This document shows positions 30,348 to 40,882 of a stretch of 64,000 bases of DNA, piece by piece. The DNA comes from Bryobacterales bacterium (lineage in GTDB: Bacteria > Acidobacteriota > Terriglobia > Bryobacterales > UBA6623), in the NCBI GenBank assembly GCA_965224215.1, contig CBDCYS010000027.1:10304-74303 (forward strand), read 5' to 3'. The position numbers and the translations under genes are program-made. Within the stretch, counting starts at the first letter, position 1. Every line of letters begins with the position of its first letter. The notes under the pieces are model-generated. The model ran no database searches. It worked only from the letters and a program-made list of their open reading frames with translations, and was not told the DNA's origin.

Positions 30348-31377
30348 TCTGGTTATCCACTTTACTCTAGTGATGAATCAAGCTATCCTTGGACTCGCGC
30401 TGTTGGCGGCGAAGACCGAGTCTGTTGAGCGACGATTTTCCAAAACATCTGGTGGAGTTCACTGAACGGTTTGCCAGCGAGCAAGCTTGCTGCGAGTATC
30501 TGCTCGGTGTCCGCTGGCCAGCGGGGTTCGTTTGTCCGAACTGCTCGGCCACGAAGGGTTGGACGACCCGACGAGGCACGATGTGCTGTAGCGGGTGCCG
30601 ACGCCAGACCTCTCCCACGGCGGGAACCATCCTGCACAACTCGCGGGTGCCGCTGCGGAGTTGGTTTCTGGCCATGTGGCTGGCCTGCACTCAGAAAACA
30701 GGGCTGAGCGCCAAGGGTTTGCAGCGTGAACTCGGTCTGGGCAGCTATCAGACCGCCTGGCTGATGTTGCAGAAGTAGCGGCAGGCGGATGGTTCGGCTG
30801 GGTCGGGAACGGCTGGACGGAAGTGTCGAAGTCGACGAGACTTACTTGGGCGGCAAGGAGAAGCACGTTCGCGGGCGAGAGCTGGTGGGCAAAGCCTTGG
30901 TTGTGGTTGCGGTGGAACTGCAGGGCCGCAAAATGGGGCGAATTCGTCTGCGTCATGTCCCCGACGCATCGGGACCGAGTCTGGTGGGTTTTGTGACCGA
31001 CTGTGTGGCGTCAGGCAGTCTGGTCCATAGCGACGGCTGGAGGGGTTACCGGGGCTTGAAGAAAGCCGGCTATCGCTATCGGGTCACCCACACAGCGGGA
31101 GACTCGCAGATAGCCGCCGAGGAATTCGCGCATGTCCACCTGGTTGCCTCGCTGCTCAAGCGCTGGTTGGTAGCGACGCACCAAGGGAAGGTGAGTAAAG
31201 TGCATCTGCAAGGCTACCTCGATGAATTCACCTTTCGCTTCAACCGTCGAAAGTCCCGCCACGTAGGCAAGATCTTCCACCGACTCGTCGAACAGTTGGT
31301 TCTCCGTAAGGCCTTGACCTATCGAGACATTATCACCAAGCCCCAGCCCACCAACTAGAGTAAAGTGGATAACCAGA
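30348..31377 (+). mobile_element. IS1595-family element type B, copy 2 (nonsense codon plus the same frameshift)
   Basis: Near-identical to 16008-17037; flanking duplication CTGTGCATA; TAG at 30776. Confidence 0.95.
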
Positions 31378-31526
31378 CTGTGCATAATTCAGGTGTTACA
31401 GTATAGTTGCAGGTCCAAAAGAGGAGATTGGATTCTTTTGGGGGTGTACACGAGCGGAAGCGCACCGAGTTCTACAGGGATACAGAGTACGGCTGGAAAC
31501 AAGAACTTTTCGGGGTAGATAAGGAA

Positions 31527-32557
31527 GATGGGTATCCGGTTGACTCAGGTAGCCCCAATATCTTGTGGTTTGGGGATTTTCTTGGGTTCTGTAACCGGGT
31601 GAACAATCATCTTGTAAGTCGCCGGATCCACGGCTACCGCCTGCTGGACGAGCCGATAGAAGAGTTTGCCGCGGCTTTTGGATTTGCGGCGGTTGAAACG
31701 GAAGGTGAACTCGTCCAGGTAGTAGTCCAGATGTTTGTGGCTCACGGCGCCCTGATGGGTGCCCAGCAGCCAGCGCTTGAGCAGTGACATCACGCGGTGG
31801 ACGCGGGGCATCAATTCCGACGCGGACTGCTCCTGCCTGCTGACAACTGTGACCTGATGGACGTAGCCTTCCTTTTTCAACCCGGAGTAACCGGGCCAGC
31901 CGTCGGTATGCACCACGCTGCCCGGCTCGATGCACTCCTCCACGAAAGGCAACAGGCTCTCGCCCGAGGCATCCTCGATTCTCTTCATGCGAATCCGGCC
32001 GATACCCCACCCATCCTCTTGAGCGGCTACTGCGATCAATGCTTTGTTTTTCAGGTTTCGGCCCCGCAGGCCCTCTTCGAGCCCGCCCCAGTAGCTTTCA
32101 TCGACTTCCACCGTCCCGGCCAGCAAATCCCGTCCCGGCCGCACCATCGCGCGCCGCATTTTGTGCAGCCAGGTCCAAGCCGTTTCGTACCTGTTGAGCC
32201 CCAACACTCTTTGCAGTCCCAAAGCGCTGGCTCCGGTCTTTTGGGTGGTGACCCACCACATCGCACGAAACCACAACGGCAAAGGGCTGCGCGTGTCCTG
32301 AAAGATGGTCCCGGCGGTCACCGAGGTTTGGCGCCCACACGCAGCGCACTGCAGCAGCACTTTTCGCAAAGGCCACGACTTTCCACAACCGCAACCCGGA
32401 CAGCGGAAACCGTCCGGCCAGCGCAGCCGGAACAGATACTCCCGGCAGGCCTCCTCACTGCTAAAACGGGCCTCGAACTCTGTCAGGTTCTGAGGGTAAT
32501 CTTCCATCTGCCGGCATACTACATCTTGGGGCTACCTGAGTCAACCGGATACCCAAC
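31527..32557 (-). mobile_element. IS1595-family element type A, copy 2
   Basis: Same TIRs as 14959-15988; 8-bp TSD ATAAGGAA (31519-26, 32558-65). Confidence 0.95.
31545..32507 (-). CDS. IS1595-family transposase (intact)
   Basis: 320 aa; Zn ribbon, VEVDE, HTDG, YLDEFTFRFNRR. Confidence 0.95.
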   Translation of the reverse strand: MEDYPQNLTEFEARFSSEEACREYLFRLRWPDGFRCPGCGCGKSWPLRKVLLQCAACGRQTSVTAGTIFQDTRSPLPLWFRAMWWVTTQKTGASALGLQRVLGLNRYETAWTWLHKMRRAMVRPGRDLLAGTVEVDESYWGGLEEGLRGRNLKNKALIAVAAQEDGWGIGRIRMKRIEDASGESLLPFVEECIEPGSVVHTDGWPGYSGLKKEGYVHQVTVVSRQEQSASELMPRVHRVMSLLKRWLLGTHQGAVSHKHLDYYLDEFTFRFNRRKSKSRGKLFYRLVQQAVAVDPATYKMIVHPVTEPKKIPKPQDIGAT

Positions 32558-33014
32558 ATAAGGAAAACAATTCACCGCGTCCCCAGCTAGTTGCAGCACG
32601 CTGGATTGCGGGCCTGACACGTTTTAGCCAGAAAACGATCTACAAGGCTGCGAGGGACGAAAAGTTGCCGGGGGCGGTACGCACGTCCTCGGCAGTCTCA
32701 GGTTCAACCGCAACTCTGTCTTGGAGTTTCGGTGGAAGACCGACTCCAAGTTCTAACTTCACCGAGAAAACTTTAATCGAAATCAGTCAACTGGGCACAC
32801 TCGACCTTTTCAGGTAACGAGCGAGTCCGGTGAGGTCTTTGTGCGCGTGGGCGTAGTGGCTCGATTTGGAATGATCCAATGCCGCTTGACCCAAGGATAG
32901 CTCGGGGCGACATTTAGGTGGTGCGCCTAGCCTCAAGAGAATGTGCTCTAGGCCGTCTAGGAGGCTCTTCTTTGAGCGGGAGTGTGGATCAAAGAAACGT
33001 GGCAGGAGGAAAGT

Positions 33015-33860
33015 GTGAGTAAGTCACCTGCATTTCAGTTCTATCCGAAGGACTGGCTCAGTTCGCAGCGGGTAGCGGCGATGAGCTCAGCCGAGAAAGG
33101 GGTCTACATCGACCTATTGTGTCATGCGTGGCTCGCGGACGACTGCGGGCTACCGGACGACGACAAGGTACTTTTGCGCCTATCTAAAGCCGACCATCGA
33201 AAGGGCGCAAAGTTGATCCAATGAGTGAGGCGCATGTTCCAACCACTGGACGGGCGACTTTTCAATGACCGACTACTGGAGGAGAGGGCTAAGCAGCAGA
33301 GAAAGAGGGAGTTAGCGAGCAAGGCTGGCCAGGCATCGGCAGTAGCGAGGCAACGGGTGTTCAGCGGACATTTAACGGACGTTTAACGGAAACTCAACTC
33401 TTCTTCTTCCACCCCAGTAAAGCCTATAGTCCCTTTGGACGGAAACCCAACCGAAGGCGTTTCGGAAACGGCTGTCGCCGAGTTCCGGGAAGCCTACCCA
33501 AGGCCCGACAGACTCAACGCATACCTCGTCGAGACGGAGTTCGCCGAGGCTGTGCAGCGGCACTCGGTGGAGACGATCATGGCCGGAGTCGAGCGCATAA
33601 AGCGGAGTAGCCGACTCGTGAAGTTCCTGCCGACAGCACCGGACTTCCTGAGGGAGGACAGGTTCCTAGAGAAGTGGACGGATGACTGCTTGGAGCCCAA
33701 CCCACTACCTGAGCTAAGCGACGAAGAGCTGGGCTGTGAAGGACGCGGGCCGTGGTGCGCGGACTGGAGCGAGGAGGAGCAGAAGGACTGGGAGAAGCGA
33801 TATAGCGGGGAGGGGGAGGCTGATAGTGGGACGCCGGATGATGACAGTGGGACATCTTGA
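33015..33860 (+). pseudogene. Phage replication initiator (YdaU/DUF1376-like N-terminus) with premature stops
   Basis: SKSPAFQFYPKDWL, GVYIDLLCHAW, LPDDD. TGA at 33222 is followed by in-frame RLFNDRLLEER. C-terminal EFREAYPR..FLP.A..FL...RF. Confidence 0.75.
33350..33398 (+). repeat. 11-bp-period iteron-like repeats inside the initiator gene
   Basis: GCAACGGGTGT TCAGCGGACAT TTAACGGACGT TTAACGGAAAC TCAAC. Confidence 0.6.
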
Positions 33861-34209
33861 AGCGGCTCTTGGCGAGCTGGAGAATGGCCAGGTGTTGCAT
33901 CAGTTGCACGAACTCATGAAGCATCTGGACAGGTACCAGGAAATAGCGACGCAGCTCGGTGCGCTGCCTGTGCGGATTCCGGGACAAGCCGATCAGCATT
34001 CCGGGATGAAGCCGATCACGATTCCGGGATGATGCCGATCAGCATTCCGACGGGATGCCGATCACTGATCGGGTGTTTTCGGAATGGTGATCGGGAGGTC
34101 GGAATCGGGTTGAGGAGACCACCCGCGACTCGGTAAGACGAACGAGCCGGGCTCTCCCGCGAGGGAGCGAGCGACGCTGGACGATCCGGCGGCGCGATGC
34201 CCTCCACTG

Positions 34210-35838
34210 ATGAGTGGAGGAAACATCGTGCCGCAAAAGAGATTGTCCATGCGCAAGACCAAAGAAGTTCTCCGTCTCCATTACGAGCTGGGACTCGGGC
34301 AGCGCCAGATCGCCCGCTGCTGCTCGATCTGGCAGAGCACTGTCCACGACTACCTGAGGCGGGCCGAGTCCGCCGGTCTGCCATGGCCTCTGCCGCCCGA
34401 CTGCGACGAGGCCCAGCTCGAAGAGCGCTTGTTCGGCGGACGTGCGGTGCCGCCACCGGGTCATCGGGGTCAGCGCCGCGCCGAACCCGACTTCGCCGCG
34501 ATTCATGAGCAACTGCAAATGCACAAACATGTGACCTTGCAGTTGCTGTGGGAAGAGTACATCGAGGCTGATCCCAAGGGCTACCGCTACAGCCGTTTCT
34601 GCGAACTCTATCAGCGCTGGCGTCGCAAGCTCGACGTTGTTCTCCGCCAGCAACACCGCGCCGGCGAAAAGCTCTTCGTCGATTACGCCGGGGCGACGGT
34701 TGCCGTCGAGAACCCCCAGACGGGCGAAGTCCGTGCAGCGCAGATTTTTGTTGCTGTCCTCGGGGCCAGTTCTTACACTTACGCCGAAGCCACCTGGAGT
34801 CAGGATCTGGCGAACTGGACCGGCTCGCACATGCGCGCCTTCGAGTTCTTCGGCGGCGTACCAGAGATCGTTGTGCCCGACAACCTTCGTGCCGGGGTGA
34901 GCCGCGCCTGCCGCTACGAACCCGATCTGAACCGCAGCTATCAAGAGATGGCGGCACATTACGGCGTGGCCGTTGTGCCCGCTCGTCCACGCAAGCCGCG
35001 CGACAAAGCCAAGGTCGAGGCCGGAGTGCAACTGGTCGAACGCTGGATTCTCGCGGCGCTACGTCACCGCCGTTTCACCAGCCTCATCGAGCTCAACCAA
35101 GCCATCGCCGAACTTCTCGAGAGAGTCAACCAGCGCCCGTTCCGCAAACGCTCGGGCTCACGCGCCAGCTTGTTCGAATCTGTTGACCGGCCGGCTCTGA
35201 AACCCCTCCCCGTCGAGCGTTACGAGTTTGCCGCGTGGAAGACCGCCAGAGTGAACATTGATTACCACGTCGAGATCGAGCACCACTATTACTCTATTCC
35301 CTATCAACTGGTGGGCCGGCAGGTCGAAGTCCGTTTGGCCGACCGCACCGTGGAGATCTTCCACCGTGGCCAACGGGTGGCTTCGCACGTGCGCAGTCGG
35401 GAGTCCTATCGTCAAACCACCGTTCACGAACACCGCCCCAAGTCGCATCAGCAGCACCTGGAGTGGACGCCTTCCCGGTTGATCGATTGGGCCCAGACCG
35501 TCGGTCTCTCCACTGCGCAAGTGTTTGCAAAGATCCTGGACGCCAAGCCTCATCCGGAGATGGGCTATCGCTCCTGCTTGGGCATCTTGCGGCTCAGCAA
35601 GACCTACTCCGCCGAGCGCGTCGAGGCCGCCGCCAAGCGCGCTCTGCGCTTCGACGCCTGTTCCTATCAAAGCCTCAAGTCGATGCTGGCCCACGGACTC
35701 GACCGCCAGTCCCTCGACGAATCACCGCCCGAGCGTGCTCCCGTCGAGCACGCCAACCTTCGCGGGGCGCAGTACTTCGATCCACCCGCCCTGCTGCAAG
35801 CACTCGATCTTGCCACCCGAGAGGAGAACCGATGCTGA
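34210..35838 (+). CDS. istA: IS21 transposase IstA
   Basis: [41 protein letters not shown]...HYYS.P. Confidence 0.95.
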
Positions 35839-36596
35839 CTCAACAGACTCTGGAAAAGCTCTACACGATGAAGCTCAACGGCATGGCGGACGCCTTCCGC
35901 CAGCAGCAAGAAGACACCGATATCGCCAGCCTCAGCTTTGAGGAGCGGTTTGGCTTGCTGGTCGACCAGCAGTGGATCTGGAAAGAAAACCGCGCCTTGG
36001 CCCGTCGCTTGGCTGGTGCTAAGTTCAAGCTCTCGGCGGCGGTCGAAGACATCGACTTCCGCCATGCGCGCGGTCTCGACCGCAGGCTGCTGCGCAGCCT
36101 TACCAGCGAGTCCAGCTGGGTACGGCAGCATCAGAACATTTTTCTTTTAGGTCCGACCGGTATTGGAAAAAGTTATCTGGCCTGTGCTTTGGCGCAAAAA
36201 GCTTGCCGCGATGGCTTCACCGCGCTGTACACACGTGCGTCCCAACTGTTCCGTGACCTAGCCGTGGCCCGCGCGGACGGCAGTTTGCCGCGCCGCTTGC
36301 TGCGGCTGGCTCACATCGAAGTCCTCATCGTTGACGACTGGGCCATGGCACCGCTGGGCGACGTCGAACGGCGGGACTTCTTGGAGATCTGCGACGACCG
36401 TTATCAGAGGCGCTCGACCATTCTGACCAGCCAGTTGCCGGTCGCCAAGTGGCATGCACAGATCGGCGATCCCACCCTGGCCGACAGCATTCTCGACCGT
36501 CTGGTGCACAACGCCCACCGCATCGAGCTACAGGGCGAATCGATGCGCAAGAAGCGGGCCCGCAAGGAAGCTGCGAGTGAGGAGGTGAACTCGTGA
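35832..36596 (+). CDS. istB: IS21 helper ATPase IstB
   Basis: Walker [42 protein letters not shown]. Confidence 0.95.
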
Positions 36597-37337
36597 AACC
36601 GCGCCTTACCCTCAAGCACTCCACGGGTTGGTTCGCCGCCGGGCGCGAGATGCAGCAGGCGTTAGGGATACTTTCCGACGGCGCCTTCAAGTTGTATGTC
36701 TACGTGTGTCTTCATGCTGAGCGCCACAGCGCTCGGCTGCGGTTTCGTCATAGCCGCTTGGCGCACTCGCTGGGCAAGAGTCCTCGCTCCATCAGTAGCT
36801 ATCTGAATGAGCTCAGCCGCCAGGGCGTGTGTCAGGTTCAAGCTGCTGCCAACCAGCACCAGATGGGTTCGATCGAGATCGCCGATCGCTTCTGGCCGTA
36901 CCACAAGCAGCTCTCTGGGACACCGGTTTGCGACCAGACCCGCTACATCGAACGCGTCCGGCAGCTCTTGCCGAGCCGGGCCTGCGTCCAAGGGACGTTC
37001 AGCGCGGCCGACGAGAAGCTTGCTGTGGAGCTGTATCAGCGTCACGTACCGCTGGAGCGCATCGAGCGGGCTTATCTGCTCGGCTGCGCCCGCAAGTACA
37101 TCGCACTGCTCAACCATCCGAGGGCAGCACTCATCTCCAGCCTGCACTACTTCACCGCGCTGCTCCGTGAGCTGGAGGATCTGAAGGTATCACCTGTACT
37201 GGTCCTATCTGAGCCACAAGGTGGACCGCCTCGAACAGAGCTGGCAGCGAGACTCGGCGGCCGTGCCGGTTGGTCCCGCAAACTTTGCGCCACCAAATCG
37301 GCGCTCAGCAACCCAAAACAAAGGAGAAACGAGATGA
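36593..37337 (+). pseudogene. Third ORF inside IS21 (HTH-containing), frameshift near 37195
   Basis: GTGA overlap with the istB stop and GAGGAGG RBS. LSDGAFKLY..LA..LGKS.RSI..YL.EL wHTH pattern. The alternative frame continues YWSYLSHKVDRLEQSW to TGA 37337. Confidence 0.7.
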
Positions 37338-37564
37338 TGATGACTGACCGATCCGGGGAGAAAACGACCCCGATACTTGACCGAAGCCGATCACTTCGAA
37401 GAAGATGAACACACCAGCGTCGCTTCGCTCCGAACTGATCGCCATCAGATCGGAATCACTGATCGACATCGCCGGAATCGCCAGCCTGGTGCCTGATTGC
37501 AATTAGTGAATCTACGGAGCCTTGAACTGATGAATTGGATGACCGACGGAGGACTGATCAACTT

Positions 37565-37837
37565 ATGAGGGACGCTTTCAACTTTGACGTGTTGATTGAC
37601 GCTTTGGCTGGCCGTCTGGCGCGGAAGCTGCGGACGGAGGGTTCTCAGGGAGCCGACGGACCTGCTATTCGCCCGCGCTTACTGACAGTCGAGCAGGCGG
37701 CTACCTAACTCGGACGCACGAAAACGAGCGTCCAGCATTTGATCTCCGCTAGCGCGATTCCCGTGGTCAGACACGACCGCAGGGTTTTCCTGGATGTGCG
37801 GGATCTCGACCGCTGGATCGACTCAGCAAAGATGTAG
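37565..37837 (+). pseudogene. Excisionase (HTH_17-like) with internal TAA
   Basis: RLLTVEQAAT*LGRTKTSVQHLI....IPVVRHDRRVFLDVRDLDRWI, directly upstream of the integrase. Confidence 0.8.
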
Positions 37838-37850
37838 TATCCTTCGAGCC

Positions 37851-39070
37851 ATGCCACGCAAGCCTCAGTTTGGACGAATCTACAGGCGCAAGAAGCGCCT
37901 ACCTGACGGAGACCTCGCGGAACTGAAGACCTGGACGATCGAGTACTACGTCAACGGAAAGCAGATACGCGAGAGCAGCAAAAGCAAGCGGTACAAGGAC
38001 GCGGAAGCGCTGCTGCGCAAGCGGATTCTCGAAATCGACACGGGAGCATACGCGGGACCGAGCGCCCAACGGGTGCTCGTTTCCGAGCTGCTCGACGACA
38101 GACTGAAGCACTACCAACGACACTATCCGAAGTCTCTGGAGTGGGCTGAGATCGTGGATGGCCACCTGAGACCATTCTTTCGGGACATCCGAGCCGCCGT
38201 GTTGGGAACGTCTCATATAGACACCTACATGGCACACAGGCGAGAGCAGGGCGTCTCGAACAGCACGATCAACCGTGAACTGGCACAGCTTCGGCGGGCG
38301 TTCTCACTTGGTCGTGAGGATGTCCCTCCAAAGGTTGTGCTGATCCCGCGAATCCCCCACTTGCCTGAAGCGCCACCTCGAAAGGGATTCTTTGAACATC
38401 ACGAATTTGTTGCGTTGCGGTCAGAGCTGCCTGAACCGCTGCGGCCGATCATCACCTTCGGCTACCTAACAGGGTGCCGTAAAGGAGAGATCATCCGCCT
38501 TCGATGGGACCAGTTTGATCTGAGCGAACGGATCGTTGACCTCGGCCCCGACCAAACGAAGAATGGGGAGCCGAGGACTCTGCCGCTTTTCGGTGAGTTG
38601 TACGAGATGATCCTAATGATCAGTGAAAGACGCCGGCACTACTGGCCACAATGTGAATGGGTGTTCACTCGTGATGGCCGGGAAAGAATCAGAGACTTCC
38701 GAGGTGCTTGGGAAGAAGCCGCAAAGCGGGCCGCAAATGCGAGAAAGCGACCCTGTGAAGAGCCTGTGGGACTTTTCCCGAAACAAGCCGGCGAAGCTGT
38801 TTCACGATCTGCGCAGAACCAGAGTGCGGAATCTGGTTCGAGCCGGAGTGCCGGAAGCCGTCGCGATGCGAATCTCAGGGCACAAGACGCGGTCAGTCTT
38901 TGAGCGCTACAACATCGTAAGGACGCGGGACCTGCATGAAGCCGCAGCGAAGCTAGAGCGGCACATCAGAGAACTTGAAAACGCCCGCGACAAGGACACT
39001 TTAAGGACACCTCGTAGAATTTCGGATGAGCCACCCCATTTTCGCCTGGAGCCTCTTCCGCCACGCACTG
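37851..39070 (+). pseudogene. Phage-type tyrosine integrase, frameshifted near 38745
   Basis: TINREL, TGCRKGEI, TKNGEPR in one frame; [27 protein letters not shown] in another. The 3' limit is approximate. Confidence 0.85.
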
Positions 39071-39365: not shown

Positions 39366-39531
39366 AGGTGGCGAGACAAGTGCGTAAGAGGCGCGTCAGT
39401 ACGAGGCGCGCGCCGCTTGACGAGCGCAGGCGAACTCAGACAGTACGTTGAGCACGGCGAGCAAGCGCAACGAAGTAATGGTGGGCCTATTGCGTGCTTC
39501 GACCGTCAGGTGGCGAGAAATGCGGGCCTAG
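39366..39531 (+). mobile_element. MITE family copy lacking one terminal repeat
   Basis: Closely matches the reverse complement of 51291-51455. Confidence 0.8.
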
Positions 39532-39534
39532 CCC

Positions 39535-40882
39535 CAATACTCTTCACTTCAGAACATTTCTGTGGCATACTGTTTCGGAGAACAGGAGGTCTCAGATGGC
39601 ACGAACGAGAGCAGCACTGCCGCCCGGCAGTCGCATTACCGACTACATCAGCTTGGGCGTGATCGCGCACTGGTTCCCGCGTCACGCGGTCGATCGCGTC
39701 TTGCGAGACTGCGGCCGGGCCTCGCGGCGACAACGCGACTTGCCGGCACCTGTCATGGTCTACTACGTCATCGCCCTGGCGCTGTATATGCAGTCGTCCT
39801 ACCGCGAGGGGCTGCGTTGCCTGCTGGAAGGATTGCAGTGGCTGCAGGATCCCGCTGCGCCGCTCAAAGTGGCGGGCGATTCGGGGATCTCGCAAGGCCG
39901 TTCGCGATTGGGGGTCGAGCCGGTCGAGCAGTTGCACGACGAGTTGGTGCGACCGTTGGCGACGAAAAAGACGTGCGGATTGTTTTATCGGGAATGGCGT
40001 TTGGTTTCGCTCGACGGTTCGACGCTCGATGTCGCCGATCAGGCCGCCAACCGCACGGCGTTCGGCTATCCGGGCGCCTCGCGGGGAGCCAGCGCGTTCC
40101 CGCAACTGCGCTTCGTCTCGTTGCTGGAGAACGGCACGCACGTGCTGTTCGCCAGCCGCATGGGGCCCTGCGCGAGGGGCGAGATCACGCTCGCCAAACA
40201 GGTTCTGCCGGCGCTCGCGAAGGGCATGCTGTGCTTGGCGGACCGCAATTTCCTCGGCTATCAGCTGTGGCGGCAAGCACGCGAGACGGGCGCGCACCTG
40301 CTGTGGCGAGCCAAGAAACATCTGCGCTTGGACGTGCTCGAGCGCTTCGCCGATGGCTCCTACCGCAGCGCGATCTACGCCTCGGAAGCCGACCGGCGCA
40401 AGCGCCGGCGGTGGAGTTGGCGGCGCTGTACTCGGAACGCTGGGAGATTGAGGGGGCGCTCGACGAACTCAAGACGCATCTGCGCGGCGCGCGGATCGTG
40501 CTGCGCAGCAAGACGCCGGAGTTGGTGCGGCAAGAGTTCTACGGATTACTGATGGCGCATTTCGCGATCCGCGGGTTGATGCACGAGGCGGCGCTGCGCG
40601 CCGACGAAGATCCGGATCGATTATCGTACCTGCATGCGGTGCGGGTCGTACGACGCAAGCTGGCCCGCGCGGTCGCGATCCCCCCCTCGGGACAAGGAAG
40701 CGTTTGATGAGGCGGTCTTGAGGGAACTCCTGGACGAGCGCGTGCACTCGAGCCGGGGGATGCGACGTCCGCGTGGCGTCAAGCGCAAGATGAGCAGCTA
40801 CAAACTGCGACCACCTGGCGCGCTGTCCCGTGAGCGGACTGACTTCGCATCGTGCGTCAGGATACTTAAGTGAAGAGTATTG
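39535..40882 (+). mobile_element. IS4-family element; transposase (from 39596) frameshifted and internally deleted
   Basis: TIRs CAATACTCTTCACTT / AAGTGAAGAGTATTG. SLDGST, LADRNF, and Y..RWEIE...DELK in a shifted frame. Confidence 0.9.

Follow-up and report, generated by a model that had tools for sequence, protein, structure and literature searches.

The window, a stretch of 64,000 nucleotides, carries a real and selected three-gene variant of the IS21 family, whose third gene (orf3) and a cis site near the right end of the element form a module common to unrelated transposon classes. Gene and cis module travel together across IS21, Tn554-like and rve-type elements of soil bacteria. On the best reading, which we put at about even odds, Orf3 would bind the module at its own element's end and recruit the host helicase or primosome for replicative copy-out. 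No description of orf3, of the module or of the three-way-junction motif reported below was found in searches of the full-text literature, including the available text of PMC5109545; entries for such elements, with the extra gene treated as a passenger, may exist in ISfinder or TnCentral.

Boundaries and coding content of the element

The IS21 element occupies positions 33971 to 37483, with the left TIR TGCGGATTCCGG starting at 33971 and the right TIR ending at 37483. It has TG...CA ends with internal repeats and is flanked on both sides by a 5-bp target duplication (TSD), GCCTG (33966-33970 and 37484-37488). The left end (33971-34066, positive strand) consists of the TIR and repeats spaced by 23 bp that are likely IstA sites, and the right end (37383-37483, negative strand) of repeats and TIR. 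Within these ends, istA (34210-35838, positive strand) encodes a DDE transposase with a Pfam rve/Mu-transpos_C_2 match and is followed by istB (35832-36596, positive strand), encoding an AAA+ ATPase (IstB_IS21, PF01695, E 5e-74). The features expected of IS21 are thus present, namely a DDE transposase gene followed by an AAA+ ATPase gene, TG...CA TIRs and a TSD. IS21 elements typically carry two genes only, a layout that is not strictly defining and from which this element departs by a third gene inside the TIRs. TG...CA ends, internal repeats, the istA-istB operon, a TSD of 4-8 bp and multicopy spread are all shared with the family as presented in the available text of PMC11208146, whereas the third coupled gene and the right-end palindrome with its A-box, both common to non-IS21 elements, are unlike the usual IS21.

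The third gene, orf3 (36593-37337, positive strand), encodes a predicted winged helix and DnaD-like helical domain. It starts at GTG 36593 and shares a 4-nt overlap with the istB TGA, an arrangement present in 45 of 48 distinct Orf3-bearing IS21 junctions and in keeping with the preliminary description, which had placed a gene translationally coupled to istB inside a TIR- and TSD-defined IS21. The late frameshift proposed there is likewise real and maps near 37196: the homologue P0002 (248 aa) aligns across two frames, its residues 203-248 matching the frame that follows the one used for residues 1-201, up to the stop at TGA 37335-37337; the unshifted reading extends to 37408 and comprises 271 aa. 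Contigs from three studies (X1, X2 and X4, of which X1 is possibly the source of the window) carry the same letters, with no gap, at this position, ruling out an assembly error. The Orf3 protein of the window copy is probably damaged, because other residues take the place of its final conserved helix after the frameshift. The cis module is intact.

Searches recovered 827 Orf3 homologues at E<=0.001, mostly 232-251 aa in length among the best 120. The gene is under purifying selection, with dN/dS values of 0.07-0.34 (15 of 18 pairs computable) compared to 0.04-0.11 for istB, and 73 of 80 orf3 matches are free of stops over at least 205 aa.

The element in the window is the sole full copy in the host genome. 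It lies in what appears to be a decayed prophage, with DUF1376 replication-gene fragments upstream (32982-33860); on the downstream side (37550-39000) are an excisionase-like fragment and an integrase gene that carries a frameshift. Further transposase-like ORFs are found at 30389-32507 and 39494-40707 of the window, and two dnaB-type helicase genes are present in the host genome (L308 and L309; contigs C78 and C35 of G000).

Domains of Orf3 and their relationship to DnaD

The Orf3 protein is laid out as a winged helix (residues ~18-96), which includes an HTH_36 match at residues 27-78 (E 1.1e-5), and a DnaD-like helical domain (residues ~108-225). A model predicted from alignment A1 (92 sequences; pLDDT 83.8) consists of winged helix, linker, helical domain and disordered tail, and the C-domain modelled alone reaches a pLDDT of 92.3. 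Foldseek returned winged-helix regulators, the best solved structures for the N-domain being of MarR/ArsR/CodY type, together with one weak full-length match to a Bacillus subtilis DnaD model (9a5c, E 5.8e-3, TM 0.24); for the C-domain it gave no match at E<=0.001. Sequence searches of the PDB with Orf3 gave MarR-type matches or none. BFVD matches include phage replication initiators and replisome organizers, and the PHROG family 'DnaD-like helicase loader' is matched by 38 of the 92 alignment members, with the N-terminal part covered in the member shown. A wide fold search with the C-domain placed AAA+ lid domains on top (Z about 6) and DnaD structures below them (2zc2, Z 4.7, 73 of 75 residues aligned; 2i5u, Z 4.4), a middling fold match to DnaD.

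Compared by hhalign, the pure transposon C-domain profile matches a single-copy chromosomal protein of Acidobacteriota (97.6%, E 3e-12) and, more weakly, three phage DnaD-like/O proteins (83%, E 8.6e-6); in a three-sequence search the pure transposon profile scored the phage proteins only at E 0.008-0.02. Together with the BFVD and PHROG matches, these comparisons bear out the initiator/DnaD-type architecture anticipated in the preliminary description. The family DnaB_2 (PF07261) was matched by 0 of 61 Orf3 C-domains at E<=1, and the PF07261 search of genomes yielded NusA-like and doubtful matches that were set aside. Of the DnaD motif YxxxIxxxW, the Tyr is invariant in transposon Orf3 and the Trp is missing. 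On these profile comparisons, Orf3 is best classed as DnaD-related, yet outside Pfam DnaD membership. The only matches in the ESM Atlas were Acidobacteriota clusters without names, and no relative of Orf3 was detected in the viral contigs searched. A plasmid search with the stand-alone C-domain gave no match; plasmid matches of Orf3 span at most 40% of the protein, the best N-domain match being a gene directly before parA-parB.

Phage replisome organizers such as gp77 of Brevibacillus phage Jimmer1 also combine an N-terminal winged helix with a C-terminal DnaD-related domain, and the signature I.S(L/V).Y is common to phage DnaD-like loaders and the Orf3 C-domain. Orf3 differs from these loaders in its shorter linker, in the lack of a visible iteron array, in being transposon-borne and in the position of its gene after, not before, a DnaC-like ATPase, or without one. 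RSF1010-type RepB' primase acts with an ssi hairpin, and its hairpin with an adjoining conserved box is reminiscent of the Orf3 module; of the 61 C-domains, 17 give weak RepB_primase_C matches, at best with E 1e-4, however the primase catalytic domain is absent from Orf3. The winged helix and helical C-terminal domain of Bacillus DnaD, as given in the available text of PMC10201434, have counterparts in Orf3, with only a middling match of the C-terminal fold (Z 4.4-4.7, below AAA+ lids); Orf3 differs in the lack of a PF07261 match and of the Trp, in being element-encoded and in its apparent site specificity.

Carriers, cis module and alternative occupants of the slot

Carriers of orf3 were counted among 203 genome loci, using the 80 best, which come almost entirely from Acidobacteriota and are not independent of each other. 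In this set istB lies upstream of orf3 at 56 loci and is absent from 24. At 22 of the latter, orf3 stands behind a Tn554-like tyrosine-recombinase operon (two tyrosine recombinases and a small gene, or the part of it that the contig covers); of the other two, one has an unrelated rve transposase in front of orf3 and one is an orphan. Several istA-istB-orf3 elements are multicopy and active, with TSDs of 4-8 bp, and within their TIRs the gene order is stable. The preliminary description holds in its architecture and synteny, however its suggestions of an IS21-specific three-component subtype and of a factor paired with IstB are not supported, given the Tn554-like and rve-type carriers. The C-domain also occurs alone, without the winged helix, in at least 5804 clusters. 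Of 79 metagenome loci with this form, 77 have it immediately after istB, and an ExeA-type ATPase precedes it in one case. IstB is therefore a frequent but dispensable neighbour. A quick few-column tree nests the Tn554-like Orf3s among those of IS21, and IstB and Orf3 trees are broadly congruent inside the main clade. Outside this phylum, 2 of 251 Planctomycetota genomes (the phylum of G401) match, one of them weakly.

The Tn554-like carriers encode two tandem tyrosine recombinases and a TnpC-sized third protein, a layout that fits the Tn554-related elements in the available text of PMC3414803, in which a short TBSSR and a long TBSSR are joined by a TnpC-like protein. They differ from Tn554 in a fourth coupled gene, encoding Orf3 or a primase, and in their insertion sites, which are PRTRC-C-like, DUF932 or RepB-primase genes or lie next to DUF6094. 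These targets (L042, L043, L046, L053, L054, L074; L039, L066; L016-L019) are typical of mobile elements; the interrupted genes include DUF932 and one that we take to be PRTRC-protein-C-like, and further sites lie beside DUF6094 methyltransferases. Several of these elements carry large ABC-permease-like genes as cargo, and on a Citrobacter plasmid (L307:9850-13086) a CBASS system adjoins a Tn554-like recombinase trio. Among carriers of the stand-alone C-domain, one operon (L085:6140-8590) consists of an rve transposase, an ExeA-type AAA ATPase and the C-domain, and some IS21 elements (L082:2484-3590, L091:2984-3430, L085-L087) contain a cysteine-rich zinc-finger-like or a ParB-like ORF inside their ends, the zinc-finger-like ORF lying upstream; 10 copies of such elements are listed in G015 and 11 in G370.

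Downstream of orf3 lies a bipartite module, a palindrome followed by an A-box with the pattern AGA[AG]ACGA[AG]ATGATG. In the window, on the positive strand, the palindrome is at 37272-37296, with the core GCAAACTTTGC at 37278-37288, and the A-box AGAAACGAGATGATG, a candidate Orf3 site that co-segregates with orf3, at 37325-37339. The A-box is found in 39 of 44 Orf3-bearing IS21 right ends, in 0 of 24 Orf3-less istB ends and in 2 of 69 C-domain-only ends (background ~0.01 per 450 bp). It is single at each end, with no iteron array, and in most cases lies 115-150 bp inward of the TIR; 24 of 41 boxes have a GCAAAnTTTGC-like palindrome ahead of them. The palindrome covaries across 18 ends, with 8 of 11 pairs altered on both sides (0 of 500 shuffles; slid controls lower), and the module is retained where it is non-coding, with the orf3 stop codon far upstream. 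Both the A-box pattern and the junction model discussed below were built from positives, which leaves the negatives as the independent evidence; related elements, moreover, do not count as separate cases.

In Tn554-like carriers the A-box points outward: of the 13 loci whose flank is long enough, 11 have it at the left end, and it is present at seven right ends. At five of these seven, the continuation of the interrupted target gene can be seen. The rve-type carrier also has an A-box. A k-mer search directly 3' of orf3 in Tn554-like loci found no common motif, because cargo lies between the gene and the right end. The A-box is absent from all five Orf3-less Tn554-like loci (one of them, L305, a partial sequence), three of which have recombinases 45-53% identical, and it therefore tracks Orf3 and not the recombinase. 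This absence, together with its presence in IS21, speaks against a function of the A-box as an arm site for the recombinase. In the ParB-type C-domain-only clade, 69 of 72 ends have a different hairpin, particular to that clade, and GATGA, and one IS21 subclade (L050, L058, L064, L069, L079) carries extra tandem terminal repeats between orf3 and the A-box.

Where orf3 is missing, other features may take its position. A control set of the 30 best IstB loci comprised seven with orf3 and 23 without (some incomplete); in 13 of the latter, of which eight built the model and five did not, a three-way-junction motif lies right after istB, and the remaining 10 (again, some incomplete) have neither occupant. 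The motif was found at no Orf3-bearing end (188 sources), and none of 30 further junction-motif loci has orf3. Transposase genes of IS3-type, IS110 and rve-type elements are followed by the motif as well, and these include, in the host, relatives of the rve element in which Orf3 is found elsewhere. In an IstB tree of 81 rows, which leaves out incomplete rows and most metagenome rows, three motif-bearing Orf3-less elements are nested inside the Orf3 clade. Among Tn554-like elements, G270 has one in two copies (99.65% identical) that lacks Orf3 and has a DnaG-type primase gene coupled behind tnpC, the position of orf3 in its relatives. Orf3 was never found together with the DnaG-type primase (one Tn554-like element) or with the junction motif. 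The slot is optional, since the 10 IstB loci with neither occupant are matched by two plasmid Tn554-like elements with neither Orf3 nor primase.

The junction motif is a covarying DNA/RNA three-way junction with TGGA/CCACA-rich stems, present in 37 of 151 genomes of the phylum (for example L173:2300-2424, L165-L167 and L183); the host has one copy just past the end of the window (G000 C27:75090-75231) and eight more. Rfam contains no match for it. A DnaA-box array is a weak candidate for its identity, since 300 nt contain 0.08 exact boxes and, with one mismatch allowed, about one versus 0.18 expected. The Tn554-like element with a coupled DnaG-type primase gene (L303:4270-10328, L304) also carries an RHH gene and is inserted in a RepB-primase gene. 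In G205, such a primase gene is just upstream of tnpA, not after tnpC, either inside or outside the element.

Proposed role, alternatives and the chromosomal relative

Copy-out/paste-in is the mode proposed for IS21 in the available text of PMC11208146, and it needs replication through the element. The available text of PMC10201434 assigns DnaD DNA binding via its C-terminal part and roles in helicase loading and restart. The co-travelling cis module points to an action of Orf3 on the element's own end. Orf3 is best read as a transposon accessory protein, with a winged helix and a DnaD-related domain, that would bind the palindrome and A-box near the end; bound there, it would recruit the host helicase or primosome, and the element would be copied out by replication. 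In the step served, replication would presumably resolve an intermediate, either a figure-eight made by single-strand transfer or a Holliday junction. The simplest reading of a loader, a primase and a folded single-strand signal that occupy one slot is that each is a means of initiating this replication.

The possibility that Orf3 is a transcription regulator, acting at the A-box upstream of an outward right-end promoter from which adjacent genes, or istA by way of the circle junction, would be transcribed, is doubtful. A -35-like hexamer, TTGACC, was spotted by eye at 37377-37382 (positive strand) as part of a possible outward promoter, most IS21 relatives have a TTGAC hexamer ~20-45 nt beyond the A-box (also by eye), the N-domain is structurally closest to MarR/ArsR/CodY-type proteins, and there is one A-box site rather than several. 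However, a promoter consensus scan of the window scored no promoter, including at TTGACC, and regulation leaves unexplained both the conservation of the DnaD-related domain, found behind istB even without a winged helix (77 of 79 loci), and the exclusion with primase and structured motif. It is rather unlikely that Orf3 is a true initiator and the module the origin of an excised circle replicating as a small plasmid. The two-domain layout of phage initiators, the N-domain match before parA-parB and the ParB-like gene in one C-domain-only IS21 clade would suit such a function, but an iteron array is absent, all copies examined are integrated, many with TSDs, viral contigs gave no relative and plasmid matches remain at or below 40% of the protein.

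A role as IstB partner or target selector, comparable to the DnaD-DnaC pair or to TnsD/TnsE, is unlikely. The coupling in 45 of 48 junctions, the congruent trees, the stand-alone domain behind istB or, once, an ExeA-type ATPase, and the precedence of phage DnaD-like genes before DnaC-like genes all favour a partnership, against which stand the 22 Tn554-like loci and the rve-type locus without istB. Target selection is further opposed by the location of the conserved site inside the element, not at targets, and by the varied 4-8 bp TSDs of multicopy elements; inspection by eye of the sequences flanking ten multicopy groups gave no target consensus, although a bias to forks or structures would escape it. 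That Orf3 is a passenger with no part in mobility is very improbable: close IstB relatives transpose without Orf3 and the window copy is frameshifted, however purifying selection, 73 of 80 stop-free matches, the fixed position with its istB overlap and the cis module travelling with the gene argue against it.

The reading of Orf3 as an end-bound recruiter of the replication machinery can be widened, more tentatively and with odds somewhat against it, to a slot near the end that is interchangeable among unrelated transposons (DDE IS21, rve-type and tyrosine-recombinase Tn554-like). Such a slot would hold a DnaD-like loader with its site, a DnaG primase or a structured single-strand motif that calls a host factor, each letting the element start its own copy-out replication. 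The loader would then be akin to a DnaD-like gene that is nearly universal in Acidobacteriota and has gone unrecognised. To our knowledge, how replication starts on copy-out intermediates is settled only in part, with host restart proteins assumed. With a putative element-encoded loader, its defined site of 60 bp and, inside a single IstB clade, natural exchanges for a primase or a structured motif, the question becomes open to direct test; if the widened reading is true, Tn554-like tyrosine-recombinase elements would use a replication step.

The findings also flag the chromosomal DnaD-like gene as a candidate replication or restart factor. The A1 profile gave a weak match to a chromosomal gene and, with three chromosomal proteins added, the profile matched in 274 of 401 genomes of the phylum (a tally that counts one unpublished genome, G024), mostly once per genome. 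The host's own homologue is at L160:5274-5963 (G000 C44:35273-35962). Searched with the chromosomal protein, DnaB_2 scores E 0.0014 and the phage 'DnaD-like helicase loader' E 4e-8, which bridges the transposon C-domain to DnaD-like proteins. The chromosomal protein has an N-terminal DnaD-like domain (also in L096-L098 and L149-L158) and a C-terminal LSLF ending, which we take to resemble a clamp-binding motif, and its gene is often located behind valS-birA.
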